From Promethearchaeota archaeon (GTDB lineage Archaea > Asgardarchaeota > Lokiarchaeia > Sigyniarchaeales > SOKP01), in assembly GCA_048938025.1 (NCBI GenBank), contig JBHLMP010000027.1, forward strand, positions 1 to 53,516: a DNA stretch of 53,516 bases, in the 5' to 3' direction. The number at the start of each line of letters is the position of its first letter. The first letter of the stretch is position 1. The notes beneath the pieces were generated by a model. The model worked only from the letters and a program-made list of their open reading frames with translations, was not told the DNA's origin and made no database searches. This document shows, one piece after another, positions 1,930-42,334 of the stretch. The position numbers and the translations under genes were made by a program.

Positions 1930-2037
1930 GTGGGTCATCATTCCCTTGATAGAATTGATAATCTTAATAATTAGTATCAAATTACTTATGATGAACAACA
2001 AAAGATTATCATTAGAAGGTTTCTTAGTATGAGAAAA
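1930..2037 (+). repeat. Copy 2 of the 108-bp direct repeat; native promoter/leader of the ArcE-like gene
   Basis: Matches 1069..1176 and contains the ATG at 2029. Confidence 0.9.
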
Positions 2038-3369
2038 AAAGTTATTATCATTGGCGCTTTAGGGATGGATTTTCATGTATTTAGTACTGTGTTCAAAGAT
2101 AATGAAGAATATGAAGTAATAGCTTTTACTATTGCTGGCGAACAGAACGTTGGTACCACTGAAGAAGCTGAAAGAAAATTTCCAGCAGAATTAGCAGGGA
2201 AATTATATCCAAATGGAATCCCAATGGTATCAGAAGAGTTGCTTGAAGATTTAATTAAAAAAAACAACGTTGATGAAGTTGTTTTTGCTTACTCAGATGT
2301 ATCTCATGAAGAAGTTATGCATAAAGCATCTCGAGCTTTATCTGCGGGAGCAAATTATCGATTAATTTCAGGGAGATTTACTCAACTCAAAGCTAATAAA
2401 CCTATAATTGCTATATGTGCTGTTAGAACTGGTTGTGGAAAAAGTCAAGTATCTCGAGCAACTTATAGATATCTTAAGAGTAAAGGGTATAATGTTGTAG
2501 CTATTCGTGAACCAATGCCTTATGGTGATTTAGTTCAGCAAAATGTCATGAGATTTGAAAAATATGACGATCTTGATAAATACGATTGCAGTATTGAAGA
2601 ACGTGAAGAATATGAACCTTATATTAGACAGGGATTGGTTATATATTCTGGAGTTGATTACGAGAAGATAATCAGAGAGGCAGAAAAAGAAGCAGATGTT
2701 ATTATTTTTGATGGGGGAAATAATGAGATTTCTTTCTATATTACTGATTTGCTTTTTGTTGTTGTAGATCCGTTAAGACCAGGACATGAAAACAAATATC
2801 ATCCGGGAGAAGTTAATGCTAAATATGCTGACGTTTTTGTAATAAACAAAATGAATAGTGCTAAACCCGAAGATGTAAAAATCGTGGAAAAAAATCTTAA
2901 TGAGCTGAATCCAAATGCAATAAAAGTTTATACAAATTCAGTGGTTAAAGCAGAAGATCCTTTAAAGCTGAAAGGAAAGAAAGTTGTGGTTGTAGAAGAT
3001 GGTCCTACATTAACACATGGAGGAATGTCTATTGGAGCAGCATATGTTGCTGCAAAAAATGCAGAAGCGAAAATTATTGACCCTAGAAAATATTTAGTAG
3101 GGTCTATGAAAGATGTTTTCGAAGATTTCCCTCAAATTACACAAATTGTGCCTGCCATGGGATACACAGACCAACAAATAGATGACTTAGAAAAAACACT
3201 TAATAATGTGAAGGCAGATATAATCTTGAATGGTAGTCCTATAGACTTAACCAAATTGATTAAAGCAAATAAACCAATTGTGAAAGTATCGTATGATATT
3301 GAAGCCATTGGAAGTCCTACAATTGAAGAAGTACTTGATGATTTTATTAATAAATTTCTAAAAAAGTAA
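2029..3369 (+). CDS. arcE: Arginine synthetase (ArcE)-like P-loop enzyme (cyclic 2,3-diphosphoglycerate synthetase-like family)
   Basis: Family motifs AYSDVSH, AVRTGCGKSQ (P-loop), PMPYGDL, IEEREEYEP, GVDY, DGGNN, EDGPTLTHGGM and PAMGY. OTC and carbamate kinase are in the same cluster. Confidence 0.75.
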   Translation: MRKKVIIIGALGMDFHVFSTVFKDNEEYEVIAFTIAGEQNVGTTEEAERKFPAELAGKLYPNGIPMVSEELLEDLIKKNNVDEVVFAYSDVSHEEVMHKASRALSAGANYRLISGRFTQLKANKPIIAICAVRTGCGKSQVSRATYRYLKSKGYNVVAIREPMPYGDLVQQNVMRFEKYDDLDKYDCSIEEREEYEPYIRQGLVIYSGVDYEKIIREAEKEADVIIFDGGNNEISFYITDLLFVVVDPLRPGHENKYHPGEVNAKYADVFVINKMNSAKPEDVKIVEKNLNELNPNAIKVYTNSVVKAEDPLKLKGKKVVVVEDGPTLTHGGMSIGAAYVAAKNAEAKIIDPRKYLVGSMKDVFEDFPQITQIVPAMGYTDQQIDDLEKTLNNVKADIILNGSPIDLTKLIKANKPIVKVSYDIEAIGSPTIEEVLDDFINKFLKK

Positions 3370-3385
3370 TGAATAGGGTGAAAAA

Positions 3386-3949
3386 ATGGAAAAACCTAAA
3401 ATTTTAATTGCTTATGGTACTCGTTATGGGGCGACTGCGAGTACTTCAGCAGAGATTGCCAATGTCCTTCAAAATGAAGGTTTTGAGGTAAGAGTCGTAA
3501 ATCTCAAAGACGAGAAAGTCAAAGATATCTCAGAATTTGATATGATTATAATTGGGAGTGGAATGAAAATGGAAATGTGGACAAGCAAAGCTAAAGCATT
3601 TCTAAAGAAGTTTAGCAATGACCTCAAAAAAAAGAAAGTAGCAATCTTCGTATCTTCAGGTGCACGAGCACTCATGGAATATAAAGGAGAGGATGATGAA
3701 ATCAAGAGAATTACTAAGAAATATCTTGAAGATAAAGCTTCTAAATATGAATTGAATCCAATTTCGATGGAAATGTTTGGAGGTATCTGGGATTATAATC
3801 AGATGGGTAAAATTTTTAGAAAATTCTTAGATGAGGAAAAGGAAAATTTTATTCCAGCAGGTTTTAAAGAAACAGAGCCAGGAGTTTACGATTCAAGAAA
3901 TTGGGATGAGATTCGTAAATGGGCTGAAGAATTAGCTAGAAATATTTAA
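3386..3949 (+). CDS. Flavodoxin-domain protein (HemG/Flavodoxin_5-like)
   Basis: N-terminal ILIAYGTRYGAT FMN-phosphate loop, IIIGS, VAIFVS, and C-terminal DSRNWDEIRKWA. Confidence 0.85.
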   Translation: MEKPKILIAYGTRYGATASTSAEIANVLQNEGFEVRVVNLKDEKVKDISEFDMIIIGSGMKMEMWTSKAKAFLKKFSNDLKKKKVAIFVSSGARALMEYKGEDDEIKRITKKYLEDKASKYELNPISMEMFGGIWDYNQMGKIFRKFLDEEKENFIPAGFKETEPGVYDSRNWDEIRKWAEELARNI

Positions 3950-4114
3950 TTTCTATTTAAATCCAATCAATTAAAAATTTGAATAGTTTGGTTTTTTTTA
4001 AACTTCAATTTTTAATCATATAAATAATATTTAATTCTAAAGTCTCATTAAATCATCCATAGGTTAAACTTATGATTTTAATTTAGTACTCAGAACCTAA
4101 TGGAATGAAACTTT

Positions 4115-6295
4115 ATGATTTTAGCAGAAAAGAAATATGAAATTCACGAAGTTCAAAAGGGTTATGCTAATAGAACTTTATATATTAATCTATCTAAAAA
4201 TGAGATTATTATTAAGCCAGTTACCGATGAAATGAAAGAAAAATTCATTGGCGGTAAAGGTTTTGATTTGTGGCTCATGTGGAATTCTCTTCCAAAAGAA
4301 AAGAAGGTGAAATGGGATGATCCTGAGAATGAAATCTGTATATCATCAGGTCCTTTAGGGGGAAGTATTTTTTATCCAGGTTCTGGAAAATCAATTGTTA
4401 CCTCTATATCACCATTAACAGGGATCATTATTGATAGTAATGTGGGAGGTTATTTTGGACCATTTCTCAAATTTACTGGATTTGACGTTCTTGAAATTCA
4501 AGGGAAGGCAGAAAAAGAAATAATAATCTATATTGATGGAATAGAAGGATTAATCCAGATTCTAGAAGTCAATGAATCTGATGGGCTTTCTGAATATTCC
4601 CATGAACTTGCCCAACAATTAACAGAAAAATATGCTAAAGATGATGCTGAAAAAAGACAAATTTCAGTTGTGACCTCTGGTCCAGCAGCGAAACATTCTA
4701 AATGGGGTATGCTTAACTTTTCGTGGTATACACCAGTAAGAAAACGAGCATCATTTAAACAAGCTGGTAGAGGGGGTATAGGAACTGTTTTTAGTGATAA
4801 GAAAGTCAGAGCATTAGTATGTCGTGCTCCTAAAATTACTGTAAAGTCAAATAATCCTGCTGATTTGGAAACAGCTCGAGAAATAGGAAGAATACATAGT
4901 AAAGAAATTGTAGATCTTGATCCAACGCAAAATGAAATGCGCCGAGTTGGTACAGGTTACCTCCCTGATATTATGAATGTTGTTGATCTCCTTCCTACAG
5001 AGAATTTTCGTTATGGCTCTCATAAAAAAATAAAAGATAAAAACATTCCTTATAATCGCGAAGAGATGCGTAAAGTTTATCATGTTAAAGAGGGTACAGA
5101 TGGTTGCTGGATTGGTTGCACTATGAGTTGTTCACATTATTCAAATCCTCATAAAGTTTTGACTGGTCCATTTAAAGGTCAAGAAGTTATTGTTGAGGGA
5201 CCTGAATACGAAACAATAGCTGGATGTGGACCGAACTGGGACGTTTGGGATCCAAAATGGGTTCTTGAGGTTAACTTTTATTGTGACACATATGGACTTG
5301 ATACAATTTCTATAGGGACTGGTATTGGCTTTGTAATGGAATGTTATGAAGAAGGAATATTAAACAAAGAAATCACTGGAGGTCTTGAACTTAATTTTGG
5401 TAATGCTGAAGCTGCTTTAGAATTAATTCATCAAATGGCTAAAGGAGATGGGTTTGGAGTCATTGTAGGTCAAGGAATAAGAGAAATGAAAAAATATTTT
5501 GTAGAAAATTATGGTGGAGACCCTCAATTTTTACATGATATTGGTATGGAGCATAAAGGTTTAGAATTTTCAGAATATATAACAAAAGAATCACTAGCCC
5601 AACAAGGAGGGTATGGATTAGCACTTAAAGGACCGCAACACGATGAGGCCTGGTTAATTTTTGAAGATATGGTAAGAAATACATTACCTACCTTTGAAGA
5701 TAAAGCAAAAGCATTACGTTGGTTTCCTTATTGGCGCACTTGGTTTGGTTTAAATGGACTCTGCAAGTTACCATGGAATGATGCGATAGGGCCTCAAAAT
5801 AAAGAACTTCCAGTGAAGGATCCTAAAACGGGTGAACTACTCCAAGCAAGGATACCTTATCATGTTGATTGGTATGCCAAATATTTCTCAGCAGTTACGG
5901 GAAGGCAATCTACTCCAGATGATCTTATTAAAATGTCTGAAAGAGTTTACAATTTTCAGAGAATTTTTAATATTCGATTAGGAGAGGGATTACGTGAAGG
6001 TGATTCTAACTTACCATACAGAGCAATGGGTCCAGTAACTCCTTTAGAATATGAAAGTCGCGTTGATAGGTATGATAATCAGCTTAATGAATTAGGATTT
6101 AACATTGAGAGAAAATCAACAGAGGAAAAAATAAAAATACTTCGAAAACATCGAGAAGAACAATATTCCAAACTTCAAGATGTCGTATATAAAGAACGTG
6201 GTTGGAACCAAAAAGGGTGTCCTACTATTAAACTAGTTAAAGAACTAGGAATTGATTACGATGATGTAATTTCTGTAGTTTCTCCTCACCAATAA
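4115..6295 (+). CDS. aor: Tungsten-type aldehyde:ferredoxin oxidoreductase
   Basis: SPLTG...DSNVGG, AGRGGIG, the Fe-S motif CWIGCTMSC, GPEYETI, CDTYGLDTIS, and C-terminal YKERGW. Confidence 0.9.
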   Translation: MILAEKKYEIHEVQKGYANRTLYINLSKNEIIIKPVTDEMKEKFIGGKGFDLWLMWNSLPKEKKVKWDDPENEICISSGPLGGSIFYPGSGKSIVTSISPLTGIIIDSNVGGYFGPFLKFTGFDVLEIQGKAEKEIIIYIDGIEGLIQILEVNESDGLSEYSHELAQQLTEKYAKDDAEKRQISVVTSGPAAKHSKWGMLNFSWYTPVRKRASFKQAGRGGIGTVFSDKKVRALVCRAPKITVKSNNPADLETAREIGRIHSKEIVDLDPTQNEMRRVGTGYLPDIMNVVDLLPTENFRYGSHKKIKDKNIPYNREEMRKVYHVKEGTDGCWIGCTMSCSHYSNPHKVLTGPFKGQEVIVEGPEYETIAGCGPNWDVWDPKWVLEVNFYCDTYGLDTISIGTGIGFVMECYEEGILNKEITGGLELNFGNAEAALELIHQMAKGDGFGVIVGQGIREMKKYFVENYGGDPQFLHDIGMEHKGLEFSEYITKESLAQQGGYGLALKGPQHDEAWLIFEDMVRNTLPTFEDKAKALRWFPYWRTWFGLNGLCKLPWNDAIGPQNKELPVKDPKTGELLQARIPYHVDWYAKYFSAVTGRQSTPDDLIKMSERVYNFQRIFNIRLGEGLREGDSNLPYRAMGPVTPLEYESRVDRYDNQLNELGFNIERKSTEEKIKILRKHREEQYSKLQDVVYKERGWNQKGCPTIKLVKELGIDYDDVISVVSPHQ

Positions 6296-6331
6296 TTAAT
6301 ATCACATTTTAAAAAAAAATAAGGATTCTAA

Positions 6332-8407
6332 ATGGAAAATATAAAAGAACATCCAATTTTAGAGATACCAGAAAGAAAGAAGATATCATTTACTTTTGAC
6401 GGCATTGAATTAATTGGATTTAAAGGAATGGTCATATCTTCGGCTCTTTTTCTCAATAAGATAAAAACTTTCGGTCATCATGTTAAAGATAACAGCCCAC
6501 AAGGTATGTTTTGTGCCAATGGACAGTGTTCCCAATGTAATGTTATAGTAAATGGTATTCCTGTAAAAGCTTGTATGACACCCCTAGATGAGGGTATGAT
6601 TATAGAAAGCTGTAATGGATTGCCAGATTTACCTGCTATTGATAATCCTGTGAAAGTAGGGGATTCAGATATAATTGATACAGAATTGTTAGTTATTGGT
6701 GCTGGTCCAGCTGGACTTTCTGCTACTAAGATATTAGGGGAAAATAATATCAATATTATATTAGTTGATGATAAAAGTAATCTTGGAGGTAAATTAGTAC
6801 TTCAGACACATAAATTTTTTGGTTCACAAAAGGATGTATATGCTGGTACTCGTGGAATCGATATTGCTAAAATTCTTGGTAATATAGTCCAAGAATTACC
6901 TACCGTTGATACTTGGCTCAATAGTGTTTGCTTAGCTGTTTTTAGTGATGGTTTAGTTGGAATTTTAAAGGATAACAAAAATTATGTTTTAGTTAAACCT
7001 ACTTATATTCTCGTTGCTACAGGTGCAAGAGAAAAAATGTTAATTTTTCCGGGGAATACACTTCCAGGAGTATACGGGGCAGGAGCTTTTCAAACTTTAG
7101 TAAATCGTGATTTAATTAGAGCAGCAGAAAAGATTTTTATTGTGGGAGGAGGAAATGTAGGGTTAATTGCTGGTTATCATGCAATCCAAGCAGGAATGGA
7201 ACTTATTGGTTTAATTGAAGCTTTACCTCAATGTGGTGGATATAAAGTACATGAAGATAAACTCAGAAGATTAGGTGTCCCTATTTATACCAACCACACA
7301 ATTTTATCTGCAAATGGGAAAAATAAAGTAGAATCTATAACAATAGGTCAAATTGATAAGAATTTCAATATCATTACAGGTACAGAAAAAACTTATGAAT
7401 GCGATACAATTCTAATTGCTGTTGGCTTAAATCCTGTTGATGAATTTTATTATAAAGCAAAAGAATTTGGATTGCAAGTTTGGGTTGCTGGTGATGCTCA
7501 AGAAATTGCTGAAGCTTCTGCTGCAATTTTTACTGGTAGAATTGAGGCTTTAAAGATATTAAAAGAGATTGGAATCGAAGTTAGAGAAGATATTAATGAA
7601 CTTCAAAATTTTGCTGAGCTAATGAAAGCTAAACCGCCAAATCCAATAAAAACAGAGATAACCTTTAAAGAGGAAGGAATTTATCCCGTTTTTTATTGTA
7701 ATCAAGAAATTCCATGTAATCCATGTACATCAGTTTGTCCGCAGGAACAGATTGAAACTGTGGATGACTTGATTACCCAATTACCCTTTTTTAAAGGCAA
7801 AGAAGATTGTTTGGGCTGTGGAAAATGTGTGGCTGTTTGTCCTGGATTAGCAGTTATTTTGATTGATTTTAGGAAAGATAAAGAAAACCCTCTTGTTACT
7901 TTTCCGCTTGAACTTACTCAGGAAAAATTAGAAAAGGGTAAAAAAGTCACAGTCGTTAGCAATGAAAAAGAATTAGGAGAATTTGAAGTATACAGATCAC
8001 GAATATTACCTGAATTCCCTAAAACTCAATTAATTACTGTTAAATTGCCATCTGAAATAGCAAAACAAGCAATAGCGATTAAGCTGCTAAAAAGTGTTTA
8101 TAATGAGCCCATTGAGGTATATCAACCATCATTTACAGAAGATGATACAATAGTTTGTAGATGTGAGCGTATATCAGTTGGAGAGATAAGGAAATGGATT
8201 CGTGCTGGAGTAAGAGATTTTAATGAATTGAAGGCACTAACTAGAGTAGGTATGGGCGCATGTGGAGGAAAAACGTGTACTCCCCTTATTGAACAGATTT
8301 TTCGAGAGGAAGGTATATCTATAGAGAAAATTACACCCGGTACAAAACGACCATTATTTATTGAAGTACCAATGGGAATTTTTGCTAAAGCACATGATAA
8401 AGAATAA
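6332..8407 (+). CDS. Multidomain FAD/NAD oxidoreductase with N-terminal 2Fe-2S, 4Fe-4S dicluster and C-terminal BFD-like 2Fe-2S domains (proline dehydrogenase/sarcosine oxidase alpha-like fusion)
   Basis: CANGQCSQC...C; GAGPAG; ATGARE; GGGNVG; CNPCTSVCP and CLGCGKCVAVCP; CRCE...GMGACGGKTC. Confidence 0.85.
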   Translation: MENIKEHPILEIPERKKISFTFDGIELIGFKGMVISSALFLNKIKTFGHHVKDNSPQGMFCANGQCSQCNVIVNGIPVKACMTPLDEGMIIESCNGLPDLPAIDNPVKVGDSDIIDTELLVIGAGPAGLSATKILGENNINIILVDDKSNLGGKLVLQTHKFFGSQKDVYAGTRGIDIAKILGNIVQELPTVDTWLNSVCLAVFSDGLVGILKDNKNYVLVKPTYILVATGAREKMLIFPGNTLPGVYGAGAFQTLVNRDLIRAAEKIFIVGGGNVGLIAGYHAIQAGMELIGLIEALPQCGGYKVHEDKLRRLGVPIYTNHTILSANGKNKVESITIGQIDKNFNIITGTEKTYECDTILIAVGLNPVDEFYYKAKEFGLQVWVAGDAQEIAEASAAIFTGRIEALKILKEIGIEVREDINELQNFAELMKAKPPNPIKTEITFKEEGIYPVFYCNQEIPCNPCTSVCPQEQIETVDDLITQLPFFKGKEDCLGCGKCVAVCPGLAVILIDFRKDKENPLVTFPLELTQEKLEKGKKVTVVSNEKELGEFEVYRSRILPEFPKTQLITVKLPSEIAKQAIAIKLLKSVYNEPIEVYQPSFTEDDTIVCRCERISVGEIRKWIRAGVRDFNELKALTRVGMGACGGKTCTPLIEQIFREEGISIEKITPGTKRPLFIEVPMGIFAKAHDKE

Positions 8408-8418
8408 GGAGATTTACT

Positions 8419-9585
8419 ATGGTAGAATATGATGTTATTATTATTGGTGCAGGAAGTGTAGGGGTTCCTACTGCTTTAGCTACAGTAAATGATGGACTTA
8501 AAACGCTCGTTATTGATTCATTCCCTTCAGTTGCTCAAGCAGACAATAAACACGCAATTGGTGGTATCCGAGCCACCCATTCACATAAAGGAAAAATATG
8601 GTTATGCCAGAGATCCATTGAAATTTTCTCTACTTGGGAAGAAAAATATGGGGACGATATTTGGTGGAACCAAGGTGGTTATGCTTTTGTCGCTTATGAA
8701 GAAGAACATGAGAAATTATTAAGAGATACAGTTAAACTCCAAAAAAGTTATGGATTAAACATTAATTATGTAGATACTGAAAAAATAAAGTATATCGTTC
8801 CAGGTATTAATGATAATGGATTATTGGGAGGAAGTTATAGTCCTGAAGATGGTAATGCTTCACCACTATTAGCTTTACATGCCTTTTATCGGCATTCAAA
8901 GAGTAATGGAGCGGAATATCATTTTAATGAAACAGTTTTAGAAATTTTACCCAAAAAGAACCAAGCAATAGAACTCAAAACATCTAAGGGAAGATATAAA
9001 ACTAATTATGTTATTAATGCTGCTGGAGCTTACGCAAAGGATCTCGGTAAAAAAATTGGGATTAATATACCATTAGAACCCGAATCTCATGAGGCAGGGA
9101 TAACAGAACCAGTAAAAAATTTCTTCTCAACTATGGTTGTGGATATTAGACCTTTTACAGATCCTAAATTTGGAGATTCTAAAAATTATTATTTTTATCA
9201 AAATAAAGAAGGAAAGATTTTATTTTGTTTAACACCAAATCCTAATATTCCCGGAATAGATAGGAGAGAAACAAGTTCATTTTTACCGCAAATTTCAAAA
9301 AGAATGATTCAACTTCTACCACGTTTGAGGAACATAAAAGTAAGGCGTACATGGCGTGGTTTATATCCAATGACTCCAGATGGAAATCCAATCGTAGGAA
9401 AAGTTGATGAGATTGAAGGATATATTAATGCAGTTGGAATGTGTGGACAAGGTTTTATGTTAGGACCTGGATTAGGAGAGCTTCTAAGTCGCTTAATAAC
9501 AGAGAAAATCACTTCAAGGGATAAAGAAATTTTAGAATTACTCTCTTTAACTAGGGATTTTAGTATTGAAGAAGAATTAAAATAA
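8419..9585 (+). CDS. DAO-family FAD oxidoreductase (dye-linked proline dehydrogenase/sarcosine oxidase beta-like catalytic subunit)
   Basis: GAGSVG dinucleotide fold, INAAG, WRGLYPMTPDGNPIVG and GMCGQGFMLGPG. Starts 11 nt after the alpha-like gene, with an AAGGAG Shine-Dalgarno-like site. Confidence 0.8.
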   Translation: MVEYDVIIIGAGSVGVPTALATVNDGLKTLVIDSFPSVAQADNKHAIGGIRATHSHKGKIWLCQRSIEIFSTWEEKYGDDIWWNQGGYAFVAYEEEHEKLLRDTVKLQKSYGLNINYVDTEKIKYIVPGINDNGLLGGSYSPEDGNASPLLALHAFYRHSKSNGAEYHFNETVLEILPKKNQAIELKTSKGRYKTNYVINAAGAYAKDLGKKIGINIPLEPESHEAGITEPVKNFFSTMVVDIRPFTDPKFGDSKNYYFYQNKEGKILFCLTPNPNIPGIDRRETSSFLPQISKRMIQLLPRLRNIKVRRTWRGLYPMTPDGNPIVGKVDEIEGYINAVGMCGQGFMLGPGLGELLSRLITEKITSRDKEILELLSLTRDFSIEEELK

Positions 9586-9661
9586 TGTTTTCAAAAAAAA
9601 TTATATAAAAATTAGCCTACATTTAAGATTTTGAAGATAGATTTAATTAAATTAATATATT

Positions 9662-10606
9662 ATGTGGTCTAAAATGATTCGACATCTATTAAAAGTTTCA
9701 GATTTTTCAAAAGAAGAATGTGAGAAGGTTATTAATAAATCAATTGAGATAAAGAGAAATCCTAAGAAATATAGTTCTACTCTAGAAGGAGAAACACTCT
9801 TAATGTTATTTGAAAAACCTTCCTTGAGAACCCGAATATCATTTGAAACTGGAATGCAACAATTAGGTGGACATGCGATTTTTTATTCAATTAAAGATTC
9901 ACCTTTAGGGAAGAAGGAGAATATTAGTGATACAGCTAAAGTTGCTTCTAGGTTTGTAAATATTATTGCTGCTCGTGTTTTCAAACGACAAGATATCTGG
10001 GATCTCGCGAAATATGCAGATGTCCCCGTGATAAATATGCTGGATGATTTCGCTCACCCATGTCAAATTCTAGGAGATTTTCAGACAATAAAAGAGAAAA
10101 AGAACAGCTTGGAGGATATGAAACTCTCTTATTTTGGTGATGCTCATAATAATGTTACTTATGATTTAATGCGGATTTGTACAATGTTTGGCTGGAGAAT
10201 GGATGTTGCCTGTCCTAATGCTCCAGAATATTCACCTGAACGAATAGTATTAGATGAAGTTTCAGAGATCTCCAAAGAAACTGGTGCTAATATAAGAGTA
10301 ATTCATAATGCTATGGAAGCTGCTCAAGAAGCTGATGTGATATATACAGATAGTTGGATGAGTTATGGAATACCAATAGAACAGGAAGAAGAGCGGAAAA
10401 TAGCTTTTATGCCTTATCAAGTTACATCATCAGTTATGAAAGCAGCTAATTTAGACGCGCTTTTTATGAATTGTTTACCAGCAATGAGGGGATATGAACA
10501 AACAGCTGATATAATTGATGGAGCCCAATCAATTGTTTTTGATCAAGCAGAAAATAGATTACATATTCAAAAAGCCATCATGCTCTTTTTACGAGATAAA
10601 TTTTAG
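9662..10606 (+). CDS. arcB: Ornithine carbamoyltransferase (start may be 9674)
   Basis: KPSLRT carbamoyl-phosphate motif, HPCQ, YTDSWMSY, NCLP and QAENR. Confidence 0.93.
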   Translation: MWSKMIRHLLKVSDFSKEECEKVINKSIEIKRNPKKYSSTLEGETLLMLFEKPSLRTRISFETGMQQLGGHAIFYSIKDSPLGKKENISDTAKVASRFVNIIAARVFKRQDIWDLAKYADVPVINMLDDFAHPCQILGDFQTIKEKKNSLEDMKLSYFGDAHNNVTYDLMRICTMFGWRMDVACPNAPEYSPERIVLDEVSEISKETGANIRVIHNAMEAAQEADVIYTDSWMSYGIPIEQEEERKIAFMPYQVTSSVMKAANLDALFMNCLPAMRGYEQTADIIDGAQSIVFDQAENRLHIQKAIMLFLRDKF

Positions 10607-10614
10607 ACTCAAAT

Positions 10615-11589
10615 TTAAATTCGTAAACCATTCAGAATCTGCTCAACTTCTTGATAGAGTCTTGGATAAATTTTCGCAAATAAGCGATACCAATCCACTC
10701 CAATTATTCCACTCGAAAGAATACAAAGAATAAACCCTATAAGAACCACTATTTCATTTTTCAACCCGAAAATCCTTTCTGGTAAAAAGAGTTTTCCATG
10801 CATTAACATATTTACAGAAAAACTATTGATTAGTATTCCCAAAGAATAAATTAATATTTTCGGAGATTTAAAAAAATGAACAGAATCGCCAGCAATTGAA
10901 CCAAATACAGCCGCTGTATCATTATCATTTATAATTTCTCTTCGCTCGATAAATTTAAACTTAATTATATCTTTTCTGTCTCTAAAAATTAGAAAACTTC
11001 CAGTAAATAAGAATAAATATAGTAAAATCATAGTAATTGCTAAGAAGATCCTTAATTCTTCCCTCATCACTTCATATTGAATTAAAAAGTAACGAATCAT
11101 CAATAGGAAAATGGCAATGATAACAAAAATAATGCCTACAAAACCTTCATGGAAGTGATAATTCTTAAAAACCTTTCCCTTTTCATTTTGGTTGGAATGA
11201 TTTTTGATATATTTCATTATGTACAATGTGAATCCGGGAGATATGATACAAATACCTAGTAATGCAGCAATAGTTCTTGAAGTGGACATATTCAAAAATT
11301 CAATATTTATATCAAAAAAATCCAGTAAATAAAGAAGAATCCATAAAAGAGCTCCAGATGTAATAATAAAGATAAAAAAGATACTATAGAACTTGTAATT
11401 AATTAAGAAAAAGAGAATGTAAAAAAAAAAGGTAAAGTATATAATAGTAATCATTCTATTAACTCTAACTTCAGAGGATTCCGAGTCGTATAATTTATTA
11501 TAATAAAAAAAATAATAAAGAACTATAAAACTTAAAATACCTAGACTTACAAGAATCGCCAGCTTAACGATTAATCTTAACTTTTTCAT
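10615..11589 (-). CDS. Hypothetical polytopic membrane protein
   Basis: 324 aa with about 7-8 hydrophobic segments and a YHFHEG motif at the start of one helix. Confidence 0.7.
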   Translation of the reverse strand: MKKLRLIVKLAILVSLGILSFIVLYYFFYYNKLYDSESSEVRVNRMITIIYFTFFFYILFFLINYKFYSIFFIFIITSGALLWILLYLLDFFDINIEFLNMSTSRTIAALLGICIISPGFTLYIMKYIKNHSNQNEKGKVFKNYHFHEGFVGIIFVIIAIFLLMIRYFLIQYEVMREELRIFLAITMILLYLFLFTGSFLIFRDRKDIIKFKFIERREIINDNDTAAVFGSIAGDSVHFFKSPKILIYSLGILINSFSVNMLMHGKLFLPERIFGLKNEIVVLIGFILCILSSGIIGVDWYRLFAKIYPRLYQEVEQILNGLRI

Positions 11590-11725
11590 AATTCCCTTGA
11601 AAATTTCTTCAAATATAGAATAATTAGTTCATTACATATAAATAATCTAATCTCTTTTTATGAGAAAAATTTTAAATAAAAAGTAAAATAATTTTATTTT
11701 TCTATTAAAAATGTGATTAAAATTA

Positions 11726-12643
11726 ATGAAAACTCTTATTGTTGCACTAGGCGGAAATGCTCTTATTAGGCCAGGTGAAGAAGGAACTGTAGAACAAATG
11801 ATGGATAATTTAAGAGCTCCAATTAAACAGATTGCAGAGCTCTCTAATGAGTATAACATCATAATCTCGCATGGTAATGGGCCTCAAGTGGGTCTTCTGT
11901 TACTCCAACAAGAGGCAACAGAGGTAGTTTCAAAGAGACCTTTACAAATATTAGTAGCAGAAACTCAAGGTCAAATTGGTTTCATGATTGAAAGTACTTT
12001 AGATGAGGAGCTGATGAAGATTGGTCTGGATGAACAAAAACTGTTTTTAACTGTTCTTACTTACGTTAAAGTCGATCCTGAGGATCCCGCATTTAAAAAC
12101 CCCACAAAACCAATTGGTCCAGCATATCCGGTTCGTACAAAATCAGGGCAGGTTAAAACGGCTAAGGGATGGCGCCAAGTTGTTCCTTCTCCTAAACCAA
12201 AAAAGATATATCAATGGCGGGAAATAAAAAAGTTAATGGAATTAGGGAGTTGGATTGTAATTGCATGTGGGGGTGGTGGCATTCCAGTTATAAAAGAAAA
12301 CAAGAGACTATATGGCGTTGAAGCGGTTATAGATAAAGATCTTGCGAGTTCTAAATTAGCTGAACAAATTAAGGCGGATATACTTCTTATTGCTACTGAT
12401 GTTGAGAAAGTTGCTCTAAATTATGGCACATCTAATCAAAAAGATCTCGAAAAACTTTCTGTATCTGAAGCAAAAAAATATTTAGAAGAAGGACAATTTC
12501 CTGCAGGGAGTATGGGACCGAAAATTCAAGCAATTATCAATTTTATGGAAGCAGGAGGGGAAAAAGCAATAATAACATCAATTGAAAAAATTAAGACGGC
12601 ATTAGAAGGAAAAGCAGGAACTCATATCTATTTGGATAATTAA
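11726..12643 (+). CDS. arcC: Carbamate kinase
   Basis: VALGGNAL, HGNGPQVG, PTKPIGP, VVPSP, GGGGIPV, EAVIDKD and GSMGPK. Confidence 0.96.
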   Translation: MKTLIVALGGNALIRPGEEGTVEQMMDNLRAPIKQIAELSNEYNIIISHGNGPQVGLLLLQQEATEVVSKRPLQILVAETQGQIGFMIESTLDEELMKIGLDEQKLFLTVLTYVKVDPEDPAFKNPTKPIGPAYPVRTKSGQVKTAKGWRQVVPSPKPKKIYQWREIKKLMELGSWIVIACGGGGIPVIKENKRLYGVEAVIDKDLASSKLAEQIKADILLIATDVEKVALNYGTSNQKDLEKLSVSEAKKYLEEGQFPAGSMGPKIQAIINFMEAGGEKAIITSIEKIKTALEGKAGTHIYLDN

Positions 12644-12683
12644 TAATTATTAAAGGCTATAAATAAAAGTAGAAAATTGAATT

Positions 12684-13946
12684 TTATTGTTTAACTAGCA
12701 CTTTTTCAATAATATCTACAGCCCAATCTATTTGTTCTTTAGTTATTATCAAGGGAGGCGCAAATCGAATAATTGTTGCATGAGTATCTTTAGCTAAAAT
12801 ACCATTTTCCATGAGTTCTTCTACAATTTGTCGAGCATTTTCTTCAAATTCGATGGCTATTAATAATCCTTTACCTCTAACTTCTTTAACTGGAATTTTT
12901 GTTCTTTTTTCAGCAATTTCTTTAAGTCTTTTCATAAAATAAGCACCCATCTTTTTAGCTCGTTCCGGTAAATTTTCGCGTAAATGGACATCTAATGATT
13001 TCATACCGACGGCAGATGCTAAAGGGTTCCCTCCAAAAGTACTTCCATGTGTTCCTGGTTTGATTACATCAGGACCGATAATATCTCGAGTCGTGACTAC
13101 AGCAGAAACAGGATAAACTCCACCTCCAAGAGCTTTTCCGAGTAACATCATATCTGGTTTCACATTTTCATGATCACAAGCAAATAATTCTCCTGTCCTT
13201 CCGAAACCCGTCTGAATTTCATCAACCATCATTAATACATTATATTTTGAACAGATTTCTCTCACTTCTTTTAAAAATCCTTCTGGAGGAACTTTTACGC
13301 CAGCTTCTCCTTGGAGGGGTTCAAACAGAAATGCTGCTATTGTTTCTGGACCAATTTCAAGGATTGTATTTTCTAATTCTTCAACATCTCCATATGGGAT
13401 TGTAATAAATCCAGGAGTATAAGGTCCAAAATTACCATAATAACGAGCTGCTGAAATATCTGTGCTAAAACCAACAATTGTAATAGTTCTTCCATGGAAA
13501 TTATCTCTACATACAATGATTTTTGCTTCTCCTTTGGGAATTTTTTTCTTAATATATCCCCATGCTCTTGCAACTTTCAATCCAGTTGAAACTGCTTCAG
13601 TACCCGTGTTCATTGGGAGTGCCATTATTCCTGAATTTTTAGAATCATTTATATGTGGTCCAACTATCTCACACAATTTCTTTAGAAATGGGCCCATTAC
13701 ATCATTATGAAATGCTCTAGAAGATAAAGTTACTTTATCCGCTTGCTCTTTCAAAGCTTTTATAATTTCAGGGTGGCAATGACCAGTATTTTGACTTGAA
13801 TATGCGGATAAACAATCCAAATACTTTTTATCTTCTGGATCATATACCCAAACACCTTCTGCTCTTGATATAACTACGGGGATTGGATGATAATTATGAG
13901 CACAATATTCATTATCAATTTCAATATAATCTTTCGAACTTGGCAT
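12684..13946 (-). CDS. rocD: Ornithine--oxo-acid aminotransferase
   Basis: AHNYHP, DCLSAYS, SRAF, NFHGRT, EPLQGEAG, DEIQTG, LGKALGGG (PLP Lys) and HGSTFGGNPL. Confidence 0.93.
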   Translation of the reverse strand: MPSSKDYIEIDNEYCAHNYHPIPVVISRAEGVWVYDPEDKKYLDCLSAYSSQNTGHCHPEIIKALKEQADKVTLSSRAFHNDVMGPFLKKLCEIVGPHINDSKNSGIMALPMNTGTEAVSTGLKVARAWGYIKKKIPKGEAKIIVCRDNFHGRTITIVGFSTDISAARYYGNFGPYTPGFITIPYGDVEELENTILEIGPETIAAFLFEPLQGEAGVKVPPEGFLKEVREICSKYNVLMMVDEIQTGFGRTGELFACDHENVKPDMMLLGKALGGGVYPVSAVVTTRDIIGPDVIKPGTHGSTFGGNPLASAVGMKSLDVHLRENLPERAKKMGAYFMKRLKEIAEKRTKIPVKEVRGKGLLIAIEFEENARQIVEELMENGILAKDTHATIIRFAPPLIITKEQIDWAVDIIEKVLVKQ

Positions 13947-17234: not shown

Positions 17235-18026
17235 TTATTCTAAACTTTTTCTTCTCATAAGTTCTTTAATAGCAAAAGTTGCTACAATTTCAGCATATGT
17301 ACCTGGCCCAAATCCTGAATCATATCCTAATTCTTTCGCTAATTCATTACTTATTCTGGCACCACCGCAAATCAAAATGATTTGATCTCTTATTCCTTCA
17401 GCTTCTAAAAGTTCTACTAAATTAGTTAAATTTTTCACATGGATATTTTTTTGAGTTACTGTTTGAGATACAAGTAAAACATCAGCTCTTAATTCTATTG
17501 CCTTTTTAACAAATTCTTCATTGGACATTTGACTTCCTAGGTTATAAGTTTTAATCATTTCATATCTTTCTAGACCATAATGTCCAGCATATCCTTTCAT
17601 ATTCATAATAGCGTCAATTCCTACTGTATGCGCATCTGTCCCTGTGGTGGCTCCAAGGATAATAACTTTACGTTTAATGTTTTCTTTTATAAAGTTATTA
17701 ATCTCTTCAACGGACATAGTCTCTACTGTAATAGATTCTGCTTTAATATTAGTATAATCTATAGTGTGAACTATACTCCCATAAATCACAAAAAATGTAA
17801 AACCTTCATCTAAGGGAATATGAAATACTATGGAGGGGTCTTCTAAACCCATTTTCATAGCCAATTGCTTGGCTGCTATGCTTGCTTTTTCTCCATCCAT
17901 AACAGGAAGAGTAAAACTAACCTGTACCTTACCATCATTCATAGTGTCTCCATAAGGTTTGATCCTTTTCAAATCAAGAGTTTTATCAAAATCTTTCTTT
18001 TCTGTTGAGTATAATCCTCCTCTCAT
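17235..18026 (-). CDS. kamE: Lysine 5,6-aminomutase beta subunit (B12-binding)
   Basis: KPYGDTMNDGKVQ, the DAHTVG base-off cobalamin motif, NMKG (PLP Lys) and VSQTVTQKN. Confidence 0.96.
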   Translation of the reverse strand: MRGGLYSTEKKDFDKTLDLKRIKPYGDTMNDGKVQVSFTLPVMDGEKASIAAKQLAMKMGLEDPSIVFHIPLDEGFTFFVIYGSIVHTIDYTNIKAESITVETMSVEEINNFIKENIKRKVIILGATTGTDAHTVGIDAIMNMKGYAGHYGLERYEMIKTYNLGSQMSNEEFVKKAIELRADVLLVSQTVTQKNIHVKNLTNLVELLEAEGIRDQIILICGGARISNELAKELGYDSGFGPGTYAEIVATFAIKELMRRKSLE

Positions 18027-18027
18027 A

Positions 18028-19617
18028 TTAAATCCCTCCCAAAGTTAATTCTTTACTCATAAGTTCTATAAATGGGTTATAATAGATTTTATCCTTCTTA
18101 ATCACACCTTCTAATCCTTTTCCACCATTTATTGGTCTTTTAATATTTGCAAAAATTCCTTTTTCGATTGTTTTAAATAATCCTTCTTTTTCAATCTCTT
18201 TTAATAAATTGAAAGCTTTATTTAATACTTCATTAGCTCTTTTTTCTATTATTCCCCCTTTTTTAAACATAATTTCTTCACTGATAGATTTCAAATTATT
18301 AAAAATGTAACGTGCATTTTCTATTGAAAGTGCTCTATCTGACATAAAGGGAGTATGAATCGCTTCGGTTAACATTCCAAGGAGATGGATTTTTTGGCTC
18401 GTCATGATTGTAATGGTATTGAATAAAGCATCCTGAATATGACCTTTGAATATATTTCCCGTCATATATTTAGTTGGAGGCATATATTTGAGAGGTGCTT
18501 TAGGAAAAATTTCTCGAGTCATTTGAGCTTGTGCGAGCTCATATAAAAATCCATTTTCTAAATCTGGATTCATTTCAAAAGCATGACCTAATCCCATTTG
18601 TTCCTCTTTTAAACCAGTAAAGGAAGCAAATTGCTCATTGATAAATTGAGAAGCAAGTACAGTATGAGCAGCTTCGTAGGCATCTGCTGTTGTTAAATAA
18701 TTATCTTCACCAGTATTGATTATTACACCAGCATATGCATTTATCATTCGAGAAAAATATTGATCGATTATTGTCCTTTTCATGTTTATATCTCGAAATA
18801 GAATTCCGTATAAAGCATCATTTAACATTACATCAAGTCGTTCGAAAGCACCTATAGCAGCAATTTCTGGCATACAAAGTCCAGAACAGTAATTTGTTAA
18901 TCTAATATACCGCCCTAATTCTTCTCCAACTTCATCCAGCGCCTTTCTCATAAGTTTAAAATTCTCCTGGGTTGCATATGTCCCACCATATCCTTCTGTA
19001 GTTGATCCATAAGGTACGTAGTCAAGCAAGCTTTGCCCAGTAGATCTAATCACAGCGATAATATCAGCACCTTGTCTTGCTGCCGCTTGAGCTTGAATAA
19101 TGTCTTCATAGATATTACCAGTGGCTACAATTACGTAAATAAAAGGTCCCTCTTTATCACCATACTTTTTGAGTAATTCTTGTCTTTTTTTTTTGTTTTG
19201 TGAAATTTTAACTAATGTCTCTTGAGCAATAACATTTACAGTGGCTTTAATTTCAGAAGGATCTTTTAATGGAAGCTCTGTTAATTTTAGTTCTTCTTCA
19301 GATACTTTTTCTGCTATTTCTTGGGGAGTCCAATTTGTATGTAATATTGCATTTCCAATAAAAATCGCAGCACCATTTCCAAGTCCATTCCCCTTTCTTA
19401 TATGATCTATAACGATATTTGGTAAAGGCACATCAAATTCATCCACACCATCAATACCAAGCAATCTGCATACAGTTCTCTCAATTGTGGTAGTTGTATG
19501 GCGATCAATAAATTTTTGAGTATCTGAAGCAATATTCCTTGCTGATTTTCTTGCTTTCTCTATTATTGAAAAATCTAAATTTAATTTGCTTTTTTTAAAT
19601 GGTTCTTTCTCGTTCAT
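18028..19617 (-). CDS. kamD: Lysine 5,6-aminomutase alpha subunit
   Basis: YVIVATGNIYED, AVIRSTGQSLLDYVPYG, NYCSGLCMPE, NTGEDNYLTT and KYMPPTK. The ATG at 19617 is preferred over the GTG at 19647. Confidence 0.96.
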   Translation of the reverse strand: MNEKEPFKKSKLNLDFSIIEKARKSARNIASDTQKFIDRHTTTTIERTVCRLLGIDGVDEFDVPLPNIVIDHIRKGNGLGNGAAIFIGNAILHTNWTPQEIAEKVSEEELKLTELPLKDPSEIKATVNVIAQETLVKISQNKKKRQELLKKYGDKEGPFIYVIVATGNIYEDIIQAQAAARQGADIIAVIRSTGQSLLDYVPYGSTTEGYGGTYATQENFKLMRKALDEVGEELGRYIRLTNYCSGLCMPEIAAIGAFERLDVMLNDALYGILFRDINMKRTIIDQYFSRMINAYAGVIINTGEDNYLTTADAYEAAHTVLASQFINEQFASFTGLKEEQMGLGHAFEMNPDLENGFLYELAQAQMTREIFPKAPLKYMPPTKYMTGNIFKGHIQDALFNTITIMTSQKIHLLGMLTEAIHTPFMSDRALSIENARYIFNNLKSISEEIMFKKGGIIEKRANEVLNKAFNLLKEIEKEGLFKTIEKGIFANIKRPINGGKGLEGVIKKDKIYYNPFIELMSKELTLGGI

Positions 19618-19646
19618 TTTATTCACATTTCTTTTAATATAGTACA

Positions 19647-20711: not shown

Positions 20712-20750
20712 TAATAACAGAAATAAAACTTAATTATTTAAACTTTAGAA

Positions 20751-21989: not shown

Positions 21990-22097
21990 TATTATTTTTA
22001 ATAGTAATTAATTTTCTAGCTTAACAAATTATGAAACATACATTTATTCAAATATTTTTCGTAATTTTGAATAAATCTTTAAAATTAAATTATTAAT

Positions 22098-23138: not shown

Positions 23139-23153
23139 ATAATTTACACTTTG

Positions 23154-23990: not shown

Positions 23991-24007
23991 TATTATTACA
24001 CGCTCCT

Positions 24008-32060: not shown

Positions 32061-32102
32061 TCAAATTAAACTACAATAAGCTAGTAAAATTAGATGAATT
32101 GA

Positions 32103-33116: not shown

Positions 33117-33150
33117 TTATCAAACCAAGATTTAGATAAAGAATATTAGT

Positions 33151-34257: not shown

Positions 34258-34314
34258 AAATAATTTAATTAACTAAATGGGTTTAGTGATCTTAGTATTA
34301 CTAGAGGAGAGCAT

Positions 34315-35136: not shown

Positions 35137-35191
35137 AATTTTTTTTCAATCCTTAATTATATTTTATTTATTCTAAGAGGCCCTTATTTAA

Positions 35192-42194: not shown

Positions 42195-42334
42195 AGGTTT
42201 CCTTTAAATGAAAAAAACGATTTTACGATACGTAAATTTTAAAAATTAAATAACTGAAAACTAATTAATTAAAGAAATTTAAAATATATTGATAAAAAAT
42301 AAGATATTTAGCTCATTTTATCAAATTGGTTAAA

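Follow-up and report, generated by a model that had tools for sequence, protein, structure and literature searches.

The genes at positions 2029 to 13946 of the analysed stretch of DNA (the window, 53,516 nucleotides of a Promethearchaeota contig) appear to form a cluster for the ArcE arginine synthetase pathway that works mainly in the catabolic direction and extends to glutamate; we put the probability of this reading at about 0.7. ArcE would convert arginine, ADP and Pi to citrulline, NH3 and ATP, ornithine carbamoyltransferase (OTC) would phosphorolyse citrulline to ornithine and carbamoyl phosphate, and carbamate kinase (CK) would yield a second ATP. Ornithine aminotransferase (OAT) would then form glutamate-5-semialdehyde/P5C, into which, in the source genus and several sister genera, a proline-dehydrogenase-like flavoenzyme would also feed proline. 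An aldehyde:ferredoxin oxidoreductase (AOR) family enzyme and a flavodoxin-like protein are placed in the same putative operon. The net yield would be glutamate, two ATP per arginine and reducing equivalents, and proline is probably also broken down to glutamate by the cluster. Given that ArcE catalyses a reaction close to equilibrium (K about 10 at 80 °C, according to the available text of PMC11032458) and that the genome encodes a CPS, the net direction is something we infer.

Table 1. Genes of the arginine cluster, with coordinates in the window
Gene or product	Coordinates	Strand	Remarks
arcE-like, ArcE-family P-loop protein, 446 aa	2029..3369	+	single copy in genome; homology to Caldisericum/Hyperthermus/Pyrodictium proteins
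flavodoxin-like protein, 187 aa	3386..3949	+	PF12724 Flavodoxin_5, 66.9 bits; 16 bp after arcE
AOR family protein, 726 aa	4115..6295	+	AFOR_N 155.7, AFOR_C 316.8 bits
SoxA/L-proline-dehydrogenase-type alpha-like subunit, 691 aa	6332..8407	+	Fer2_4, Pyr_redox_2, 4Fe-4S and BFD 2Fe-2S domains
DAO-family beta-like subunit, 388 aa	8419..9585	+	PF01266, 199.7 bits
arcB/argF, OTC, 314 aa	9662..10606	+	TIGR00658 356.5 bits (cut-off 280.85); NF001986 366.6 (306)
multi-pass membrane protein, 324 aa	10615..11589	-	between arcB and arcC; matches no known family
arcC, CK, 305 aa	11726..12643	+	TIGR00746 378.3 bits (cut-off 358.25)
rocD, ornithine-oxo-acid (delta) aminotransferase, 420 aa	12684..13946	-	TIGR01885 533.8 bits (cut-off 378.4)

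The source genome is a 3.52-Mb MAG (96.7% complete, 5.1% estimated contamination). Its Asgard affiliation, presumed in the preliminary description, is based on the source labels of 83-95% identical homologues and on a tandem pair of Ras-family GTPases encoded in the window. That description had also placed arcE-like, OTC, CK and OAT genes in this region, and all four lie where it put them; in a profile search OTC, CK and OAT exceeded their NCBIfam equivalog cut-offs. Five genes that it did not mention intervene among them, encoding the flavodoxin-like protein, the AOR, the two proline-dehydrogenase-like subunits and the membrane protein.

The ArcE-like protein carries the P-loop RTGCGKS and has no Pfam or NCBIfam match at E<=1e-3. 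Its homologues number more than 8000 and go by the names 'predicted GTPase' or 'cyclic 2,3-diphosphoglycerate synthase'; members of the family match it at E<1e-100 with 40-57% identity. A Caldisericum exile protein shares 53% identity with it across 436 aa (E 3e-170), and proteins of Hyperthermus butylicus and Pyrodictium occultum are 46% and 45% identical over their full length. The available text of PMC11032458 lists all three genera as carrying arcE; it describes arcE homologues as 'GTPase', matching the source names found here, and likewise calls cDPGS remote from ArcE. No Thermococcales protein occurred among the best 80 genome loci, the named members of 30 clusters or three lists of 120 homologues. 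Identity to the Thermococcus kodakarensis protein TK2200 may thus be below 40%, and the ArcE assignment runs via the other genera named as arcE holders. The protein belongs to the ArcE family, and its reaction would, by analogy, be that of TK2200. In a public 766-aa protein, a CK domain (NF009007 313.8, cut-off 266) is fused with an ArcE domain that shares 45% identity with the protein of the window.

The preliminary description had allowed that the protein might group with the cyclic-DPG synthetases. These are remote homologues of similar length (PDB 9sxb, 8oru, 8ork) and the best solved relatives of the ArcE family profile (E 1.1e-19, 2.3e-14). Against the single sequence, however, solved chains reach only 23.7 bits, whereas family members exceed 400 bits, and the ArcE-like gene stands in a context of arginine metabolism. 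By these scores the protein does not belong with the cDPG synthetases. Many ArcE family members are named after cDPG synthetase in NCBI annotation, which is probably a misnomer.

For the beta-like subunit, 1y56_B is by far the closest solved structure (1e-51; next 8.7e-22), and the alpha-like subunit matches both SoxA (2gag_A, 1.1e-21) and PH1363 (1y56_A, 3.3e-18). PH1363 and PH1364 form an alpha4beta4 L-proline dehydrogenase in Pyrococcus horikoshii (PMC4364671, available in part). Both subunits are matched in the cluster by two adjacent genes; compared with PH1363, the 691-aa alpha-like protein has extra N-terminal 2Fe-2S, 4Fe-4S and BFD domains. Judged by this similarity, the DAO-family protein is probably the catalytic subunit of an L-proline dehydrogenase, with proline as its predicted substrate. 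Sarcosine-, opine- and glycine-oxidising enzymes have the same architecture. The flavodoxin-like protein, whose gene holds the same position in three relatives (G132, G113 and G202), is a candidate electron carrier.

The AOR-family protein is most closely related, among solved structures, to P. furiosus AOR (1aor, 8.6e-49) and FOR (1b25, 1.5e-46), with which it shares the AFOR_N and AFOR_C domains at similar scores; it is longer (726 aa versus about 605-620 aa), and its scores stay well under the NCBIfam AOR and GAPOR equivalog cut-offs. According to a 2025 review (PMC12096430, available in part), glutaric dialdehyde is the substrate for which FOR shows its lowest Km, and the enzyme also binds glutarate; these properties suggest that its native substrate is a C5 acid semialdehyde. 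As a point against the main reading, glutamate semialdehyde could be oxidised by two generic aldehyde dehydrogenases encoded at other sites in the genome. Orthologues occur in 32 of 40 family genomes, 14 of which have no other cluster genes and carry the AOR in other contexts; these stand-alone orthologues are 69-73% identical to the cluster AOR. Considering them, and the position of the AOR outside the operon of two relatives described below, its presence in the cluster may not be functional, and any role ascribed to it would be conditional.

The preliminary description found no arginine deiminase, arginase, argG or argH in the window, and they are missing from the whole 96.7%-complete genome as well. 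The genome search that it proposed returned no match for arginine deiminase (ADI, arcA) and a best argG score of 22.2 bits, below the cut-off of 27. The argH-like matches proved to be purB and a fumarase/aspartase, and the sole arginase-family match is by score an agmatinase (171.7) rather than an arginase (99.6, cut-off 227.6). Full-length ADI-family matches came from just 2 of the 151 phylum genomes and from none of 25 family genomes. As no argC, argJ, proA, proC (P5C reductase) or OCD was found in the genome either, the cell has no classical route to ornithine, arginine or proline.

Linkage of arcE to arcB and arcC, which the preliminary description expected in relatives, is kept within the family but not in the phylum's other families. 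The order arcE-AOR-PDHalpha-PDHbeta-OTC recurs in all eight same-family loci examined, with CK adjacent in six of these stretches and OAT in five. ArcE occurs in 16 of 40 further genomes of the family; OTC accompanies it in 16/16, CK in 15/16, OAT in 15/16 and both proline dehydrogenase subunits in 14/16. The recurring order and this co-occurrence show that the grouping is more than chance. In two genomes from two genera (G157 and G171), arcE, arcB, arcC and rocD follow one another in the same direction as a compact operon (spacing of 29-82 bp in G157) that lacks proline dehydrogenase; rocD, convergent with arcC in the window, is co-directional there. In other families of the phylum, CK was adjacent at 1 of 12 loci, and the only other trace of a cluster neighbour was a 28%-identical carbamoyltransferase match 5 kb off. 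The membrane-protein gene belongs to the cluster in some congeners only; it is missing at that position in G202 and the other genera, and the cluster-less congener G049 has a copy at another site. The congeners G008 and G049 (99% complete) lack the whole cluster and also argG, so the cluster is not required for arginine supply in the genus.

A lysine-fermentation set lies 3 kb downstream of the cluster (KamA, KamB with 405 bits against a cut-off of 210, KamD, KamE, Kdd with 269 against 200, and Kce). Among the matches listed, 22 congeners carry this set on one contig with the cluster, and in G202 the two directly adjoin. We count these neighbours as a catabolic context in favour of the catabolic reading. 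Together, family membership, linkage and missing alternatives support the earlier proposal that energy is conserved from arginine via ArcE, OTC and CK, the enzyme's activity and the net direction being its conditional parts.

The same enzymes could instead run mainly toward arginine, from proline or glutamate semialdehyde through ornithine (OAT) and citrulline (OTC) to arginine (ArcE, with ATP and ammonia). Carbamoyl phosphate would come from CPS or CK, and the route would stand in for ArgG/ArgH and for the acetylated ornithine pathway, which are missing. The cluster encodes every enzyme needed from proline to arginine, and the genome has a CPS yet none of argG, argH, argC, argJ or proA was found in it. 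Across the phylum sample, ArcE was present in 127/151 genomes and argG in 30/151; most often (109/151) ArcE is present and argG is not, which fits biosynthetic replacement of ArgG/ArgH. In the family (its phylum-sample genomes plus that of the window), 14 genomes have ArcE without argG, five argG without ArcE and two both, and its argG-bearing genera (g2 and g6) are those without the cluster, which fits such a replacement as well. The available text of PMC11032458 also raises the possibility of arginine synthesis in bacteria where CPS, ornithine synthesis, ArcB and ArcE are present and ArgG/ArgH are lacking, and reports that TK2200 supports growth on citrulline. We nevertheless consider synthesis unlikely as the main function: the genus lives without either system, CK and OAT typically act as partners in catabolism, the compact operon dispenses with proline dehydrogenase, the cluster is set beside lysine-fermentation genes, and the AOR would be left without a role.

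It is more doubtful still that arcE and arcB serve mainly, as was reported for T. kodakarensis in 2026, to turn imported arginine into ornithine and into carbamoyl phosphate for pyrimidines and [NiFe]-hydrogenase maturation, with ATP secondary. The full-length CPS large subunit of this genome (1462 bits, cut-off 1027) speaks against it, and the tight linkage of arcC and rocD to arcE and arcB is what one would expect if carbamoyl phosphate and ornithine were disposed of and not used in synthesis. However, pyrimidine-free growth of Thermococcus needs arcE and arcB but not arcC (T. kodakarensis, 2026; PMC13260591, available in part), and at E<=1e-60 no CK was seen in 16 of the 127 ArcE-bearing phylum genomes (n=151: both 111, ArcE only 16, CK only 4, neither 20). 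Highly improbable, finally, is another ATP-dependent activity of the ArcE-like protein, on a different ureido or guanidino compound or resembling cDPGS, with incidental adjacency of arcB and arcC. The family comprises 2882 clusters at 50% identity with a single assayed member, its tree is patchy across phyla, and the assignment passes through the Caldisericum, Hyperthermus and Pyrodictium proteins, not directly through the assayed TK2200. Yet several genera keep the ArcE gene linked to those of OTC, CK and OAT, CK and ArcE are fused in one natural protein, CK occurs in 111 of the 127 ArcE-bearing genomes, and no alternative arginine-citrulline enzyme was found in the genome.

The catabolic reading has its closest counterpart in the T. 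kodakarensis pathway of TK2200, ArcB and ArcC (Michimori et al. 2024, PMC11032458, available in part). The three enzyme families are common to both, as is CK without arginine deiminase. In contrast to T. kodakarensis, the Asgard genes form one conserved cluster that includes rocD, the proline-dehydrogenase-like pair, the AOR and the flavodoxin-like gene, and unlike most Thermococcales the genome has a CPS. Since OCD was not found in the Asgard genome, ornithine would proceed to glutamate semialdehyde, not to proline. The arginine deiminase pathway (arcABC, often with arcD) shares the OTC and CK steps, the ornithine product and gene clustering, whereas the Asgard cluster has no ArcA, and its first step would conserve a second ATP; nor does it contain a recognisable ArcD antiporter, its membrane protein matching no family. 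Homologues of arcE in Lokiarchaeota, and their proximity to arcB/arcC in some genomes, are already known from the available text of the 2024 study. The Asgard cluster is thus a good further example of the ArcE pathway described in 2024 rather than a novel type of system.

The source genome comprises 3.52 Mb in 88 contigs and is estimated to be 96.7% complete and 5.1% contaminated; the GC content of the window is 24-35%. Nine open reading frames lie between positions 2029 and 13946. The four genes recognised in the preliminary description (arcE-like, arcB, arcC and rocD) are real: each corresponds to one of these open reading frames, and the products of the last three, ornithine transcarbamoylase (OTC), carbamate kinase (CK) and ornithine aminotransferase (OAT), each exceed the cut-off of an NCBIfam equivalog model. 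OTC scored 288.5 with the putrescine carbamoyltransferase model, under the cut-off of 500, and OAT scored 538.9 with the stricter model NF003145, under the cut-off of 656. Five further genes belong to the cluster, encoding a flavodoxin-like protein, a homologue of aldehyde:ferredoxin oxidoreductase (AOR), the alpha-like and beta-like subunits of a proline-dehydrogenase-like flavoenzyme (PDH), and a membrane protein. The latter, which could be a candidate transporter, occupies the arcB-arcC position in some congeners only, and a copy sits elsewhere in a congener that lacks the cluster (G049). Every one of the closest homologues of the 446-aa ArcE-like protein, at 83-95% identity, is labelled at source as Asgard (MAGs of Promethearchaeota, Lokiarchaeota, and Thor-, Odin-, Hod- and Hermodarchaeota), and the window encodes two tandem Ras-family small GTPases, a typical Asgard signature. 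Given both observations, assigning the window to an Asgard archaeon is reasonable. No tRNA genes or Rfam families were found within the window.

Features of the arginine cluster and of its surroundings in the window, with supporting matches
Feature	Coordinates	Strand	Supporting matches
ArcE-family protein, 446 aa	2029-3369	+	no Pfam/NCBIfam family at E<=1e-3
Flavodoxin-like protein	3386-3949	+	Flavodoxin_5
AOR family, 726 aa	4115-6295	+	AFOR_N 155.7 bits, AFOR_C 316.8 bits
Alpha-like flavoenzyme subunit, 691 aa	6332-8407	+	Fer2_4, Pyr_redox_2, 4Fe-4S, BFD domains
Beta-like flavoenzyme subunit, DAO family	8419-9585	+	best solved relative 1y56_B
OTC	9662-10606	+	TIGR00658 356.5 bits (cut-off 280.85); PF02729 and PF00185
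Multi-pass membrane protein, 324 aa, between arcB and arcC	10615-11589	-	no family
CK	11726-12643	+	TIGR00746 378.3 bits (cut-off 358.25)
OAT (ornithine-oxo-acid transaminase)	12684-13946	-	TIGR01885 533.8 bits (cut-off 378.4)
Penicillin-amidase-family (Ntn hydrolase) protein, 825 aa	14553-17030	+	PF01804 413.8 bits
Lysine fermentation gene set, whole	17235-25261	-	
KamE-like B12-binding subunit	17235-18026	-	
KamD	18028-19647	-	Lys-AminoMut_A 914 bits
KamB reactivase	19647-20711	-	405 bits (cut-off 210)
Lysine 2,3-aminomutase KamA	20751-21989	-	
3,5-Diaminohexanoate dehydrogenase Kdd	22098-23138	-	269 bits (cut-off 200)
BKACE cleavage enzyme (Kce)	23154-23990	-	
Class-III aminotransferase	24008-25261	-	
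Gene run: TPP-dependent enzyme, zinc alcohol dehydrogenase, NAD-kinase-like protein, 3-hydroxyacyl-CoA dehydrogenase, CobW/MeaB-type GTPase	30264-35908	+	
Ras-family small GTPase	42326-42859	+	173 bits
Ras-family small GTPase	42881-43393	+	166 bits

TK2200 of Thermococcus kodakarensis, the sole member of the ArcE family to have been characterised, is an arginine synthetase that catalyses the reaction Arg + ADP + Pi <-> Cit + NH3 + ATP (PMC11032458); for the 446-aa protein this reaction is predicted from family membership. TK2200 has a predicted P-loop NTPase-like fold, and arcE homologues, which resemble cDPG synthase only slightly, are described as 'putative GTPases' or as hypothetical proteins; they occur in Desulfurococcales (including Hyperthermus and Pyrodictium), Thermoproteales, Lokiarchaeota, many bacteria including Caldisericum, and a few eukaryotes (PMC11032458). 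No Thermococcales ArcE occurred among three lists of 120 homologues, the 150 best representatives, the cluster members of 30 representatives or the best 80 genome loci. The predicted membership of the 446-aa protein in the ArcE family is linked to TK2200 indirectly, through the genera named in that paper, and rests on several further lines. Its identity is 53% over 436 residues to a Caldisericum exile protein, and 46%, 45% and 44% to those of Hyperthermus butylicus, Pyrodictium occultum and Ignisphaera aggregans. It shares with ArcE a P-loop, low similarity to cDPG synthetases, a gene near arcB and arcC, and a setting in which arcC is present and arcA absent. The P-loop, RTGCGKS at residues 133-139, is conserved across 35 diverse homologues, with G137 invariant and R133, T134, G135 and K138 nearly so.

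Grouping with cyclic 2,3-diphosphoglycerate synthetases (cDPGS), the outcome that the preliminary description had named as fatal to its proposal, was not seen. Solved cDPGS are remote relatives only, matching the single 446-aa sequence with 23.7 bits (E 1.9e-4) and a 24-sequence family profile with E-values of 1.1e-19 and 2.3e-14, and HypB, BioD (dethiobiotin synthetase) and MinD-type P-loop proteins rank next with the profile. A cDPGS identity for the protein is thus unlikely. The names given at source to its homologues are 'predicted GTPase' or 'cDPG synthase', and the Atlas gives generic names only. The NCBI label 'cyclic 2,3-diphosphoglycerate synthase' on many family members is probably a systematic misannotation, since the labelled members are only remotely similar to solved cDPGS. 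Clustered at 50% identity, the family runs to 2882 clusters at E<=1e-3, 401 of them at E<=1e-30. One public homologue of 806 aa (P0186) is split by an intein that contains a LAGLIDADG endonuclease domain.

Eukaryotic family members are proteins of Creolimax, Pycnococcus and Pseudoscourfieldia. Two trees of the ArcE family were built, both unrooted and displayed with a midpoint only. The FastTree analysis covered 170 members, namely 117 of 121 locus translations (four were excluded for stops, X residues or short length), 44 full-length representatives and 9 others. All 19 rows from the window's own family (f1) and its sister family (f2) fell into one clade, and the other 25 Asgard rows need at least nine changes. 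The IQ-TREE quick search used 53 hand-chosen rows, without locus L066, and gave an SH-aLRT value of 99 to a group of six f1/f2 rows, two metagenomic proteins (P0123 and P0124) and the Creolimax protein, which is 44% identical to the ArcE of the window. In the alignment, the f1/f2, metagenomic and Creolimax rows have a common insertion after the first beta-alpha unit; the Creolimax fragrantissima protein (P0133) also bears an extension at its N-terminus with many basic residues. The green-algal homologues (P0407-P0409, Pseudoscourfieldia and Pycnococcus) are placed elsewhere in the tree. With a single eukaryote in the clade of an unrooted, non-bootstrapped tree, the grouping could reflect gene transfer or shared descent, and we take it as a lead only, on the origin of the few eukaryotic ArcE genes.

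Linkage of arcE to arcB and arcC in relatives, which the preliminary description had taken as decisive, held within the window's family and largely failed beyond it. We mapped the proteins of the window onto 20 ArcE-homologue loci taken from genomes of the phylum sample. In f1, 8/8 loci showed the order arcE-(flavodoxin)-AOR-alpha-beta-OTC, with CK next in 6/8 and OAT in 5/8 within the fetched stretches; one contig stops after OTC (G113), and one genome has CK on a separate contig (G109). Outside f1, ArcE stood without these neighbours in the 12 remaining loci, except for an adjoining CK in one genome (G041) and a 28%-identical carbamoyltransferase-family match 5 kb away in another (G054). When the whole cluster was searched as DNA against the 40 other genomes of the family, an AOR orthologue was found in 32, OAT in 18, OTC in 17, ArcE, PDH-beta and CK in 16 each, and PDH-alpha in 15. 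Among the 16 ArcE-bearing genomes, OTC was present in 16, CK and OAT each in 15, and both flavoenzyme subunits in 14. At the level of the genus, the first 20 kb of the window were matched by 49 of 54 genomes, and the whole cluster is absent from two 99%-complete congeners (G008 and G049).

Two other genera of the family (G157 and G171) carry arcE-arcB-arcC-rocD as a compact operon read in one direction, free of AOR and PDH and with gaps of 82, 29 and 48 bp in G157. This operon holds exactly the four genes first recognised in the window and marks them as the core unit. A shared pathway is independently supported, in 'Rosetta stone' fashion, by a natural fusion in a 766-aa public protein from a Logan assembly (P0130), which joins a CK domain (residues 3-309) to an ArcE-family domain (residues 328-731; 45% identity to the protein of the window). 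Its CK domain scores 313.8 with NF009007, above the cut-off of 266, and 336.9 with TIGR00746, slightly under the cut-off of 358.25.

The absence of arginine deiminase (ADI), arginase, argG and argH, initially noted for the window, extends to the whole 96.7%-complete genome: we obtained no ADI match and no argG above cut-off, the two argH-like lyases are purB (443.8, cut-off 326.2) and fumarase/aspartase, and the single ureohydrolase scores as agmatinase. Searches of the same genome found no argC, ArgJ, proA, pyrroline-5-carboxylate (P5C) reductase dimer domain or ornithine cyclodeaminase; a carbamoyl phosphate synthetase (CPS) large subunit and two generic aldehyde dehydrogenases are present. 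Among 151 phylum genomes sampled evenly (72 of high quality), ArcE occurred in 127 (60 of the 72) and argG (PF00764) in 30 (15 of the 72). CK was above cut-off in 103 and reached E<=1e-60 in 115. ADI-family matches at E<=1e-10 were found in 20 genomes; only two of them span the model (positions 4-377), each beside a CK gene. ArcE and CK occurred together in 111 genomes, ArcE only in 16, CK only in 4 and neither in 20; for ArcE and argG the tallies were 18 with both, 109 with ArcE only, 12 with argG only and 12 with neither. These cross-tallies were transcribed by hand from tables and cover related, non-independent genomes, and are thus descriptions, not tests. With argG in only 30 genomes and ArcE in 127, most sampled Asgard genomes are without the classical final reactions that make arginine. 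Considering in addition that full-length ADI occurs in only two genomes, the gene counts suggest that arginine-citrulline conversion in the phylum usually proceeds via ArcE.

The flavoenzyme pair resembles the archaeal two-subunit L-proline dehydrogenase, in that the beta-like protein is homologous to the PH1364-type DAO protein and the alpha-like gene adjoins it, 11 bp apart; a proline substrate is predicted. The beta-like protein matched chain B of 1y56 at 1e-51 (next solved protein, 8.7e-22), and the alpha-like protein matched SoxA and 1y56 chain A (PH1363), the latter at 3.3e-18. The L-proline dehydrogenase of P. horikoshii is an alpha4beta4 assembly of PH1363 and PH1364 (PMC4364671). Oxidation of proline to P5C by this flavoenzyme would join the product of OAT, and such an entry point would make biochemical sense.

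In sequence, the AOR homologue is as close to the AOR of P. furiosus as to its FOR. Roy et al. reportedly proposed in 1999 that FOR acts in the catabolism of basic amino acids. The homologue in the window contains both AFOR_N and AFOR_C, and scores 98.7 with the NCBIfam AOR model (cut-off 868) and 45.6 with the GAPOR model (cut-off 1300). A review points out that the true substrate of FOR may be a C5 acid semialdehyde (PMC12096430). In the present cluster, AOR would oxidise glutamate semialdehyde to glutamate, with the flavodoxin-like neighbour as acceptor, completing the pathway without a P5C dehydrogenase. We regard this role as a tentative and rather doubtful hypothesis. The orthologue is full-length with 69-73% identity in 8/8 fetched loci; counting against the role, it occurs without the cluster in 14/40 family genomes, in unrelated contexts, and is not part of the compact operon in G157 and G171. 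A dedicated functional coupling of AOR to the cluster was not established, AOR being a family-wide gene. In a genus without the arginine cluster (L143, G144:C15:1-16000), the orthologue is embedded among molybdopterin/tungsten cofactor genes (MoaC, MoaA, MoaE, two MoeA and a MogA-like gene, with a TOBE-domain ABC ATPase), which suggests that AOR is a main pterin enzyme of such cells. It lies among EamA, ABC and FeoB genes in G165 and G019, and in G162 near kinase genes, with P5C reductase two genes away and a Ras-family-like gene close by. Proline biosynthesis was rejected as an explanation for the AA_kinase and GHMP-kinase genes of G162, which look like isopentenyl phosphate kinase and mevalonate kinase. 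The conserved operon position of AOR with the predicted proline dehydrogenase offers a concrete, testable candidate substrate for one of many orphan AOR-family enzymes.

Directly downstream of the arginine cluster lies a complete-looking lysine fermentation gene set, an adjacency that is kept in congeners. The penicillin-amidase-family gene between the two has the same place in genome G202. The gene run that begins at 30264 may encode further fermentation functions.

With a probability of about 0.7, the ArcE pathway at this locus is used for catabolism. This direction is favoured by the presence of CK and OAT, which commonly accompany catabolism, by the lack of a classical route to ornithine, arginine and proline in this cell, by the lack of both the cluster and argG in close relatives, and by the lysine fermentation genes conserved 3 kb away. 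Mainly biosynthetic or truly bidirectional use is unlikely. Synthesis is nonetheless favoured, or at any rate allowed, by the presence of CPS, by ArcE without argG being the majority state in the phylum (109/151), by the argG-bearing genera of the family (g2 and g6) being those that lack the cluster, by every step from proline to arginine being encoded in the cluster, and by an ArcE reaction that is near equilibrium (PMC11032458).

An extended form of reversible use would make the operon a self-contained arginine/proline/glutamate hub, in which AOR and its flavodoxin-like partner replace P5C dehydrogenase and, in reverse, gamma-glutamyl-phosphate reductase. By extension, most Asgard archaea would normally interconvert arginine and citrulline by ArcE instead of ArgG/ArgH. 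Run catabolically, AOR would oxidise glutamate-5-semialdehyde to glutamate and yield low-potential electrons; in reverse, AOR driven by reduced ferredoxin would feed OAT, OTC and ArcE. If true, reverse AOR would be the sole route to ornithine and arginine in an organism without argBCDJ, argGH and proA. Taken jointly, these claims are improbable, and we retain catabolism as the preferred reading of the locus.

The core of the cluster matches the T. kodakarensis arginine synthetase pathway published in 2024, with ArcE, OTC and CK and no ADI, and arcE in Lokiarchaeota as well as arcE near arcB/arcC have already been mentioned (PMC11032458). Our literature searches found no paper on arginine catabolism in Asgard archaea or Lokiarchaeota. 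Neither the conserved extension with rocD, the proline-dehydrogenase-like enzyme, AOR and the flavodoxin-like gene nor the phylum-wide counts were found in print, a statement whose scope stops short of the supplement of PMC11032458, which may show Lokiarchaeal arcE clusters or eukaryotic homologues. Because Asgard MAGs commonly carry ArcE under the name 'GTPase' or 'cyclic 2,3-diphosphoglycerate synthase', published metabolic reconstructions of these archaea may miss the pathway. Asgard archaea are believed to subsist on narrow energetic margins through amino-acid fermentation, and a pathway giving twice the ATP per arginine degraded would be important to the energy economy of such cells.
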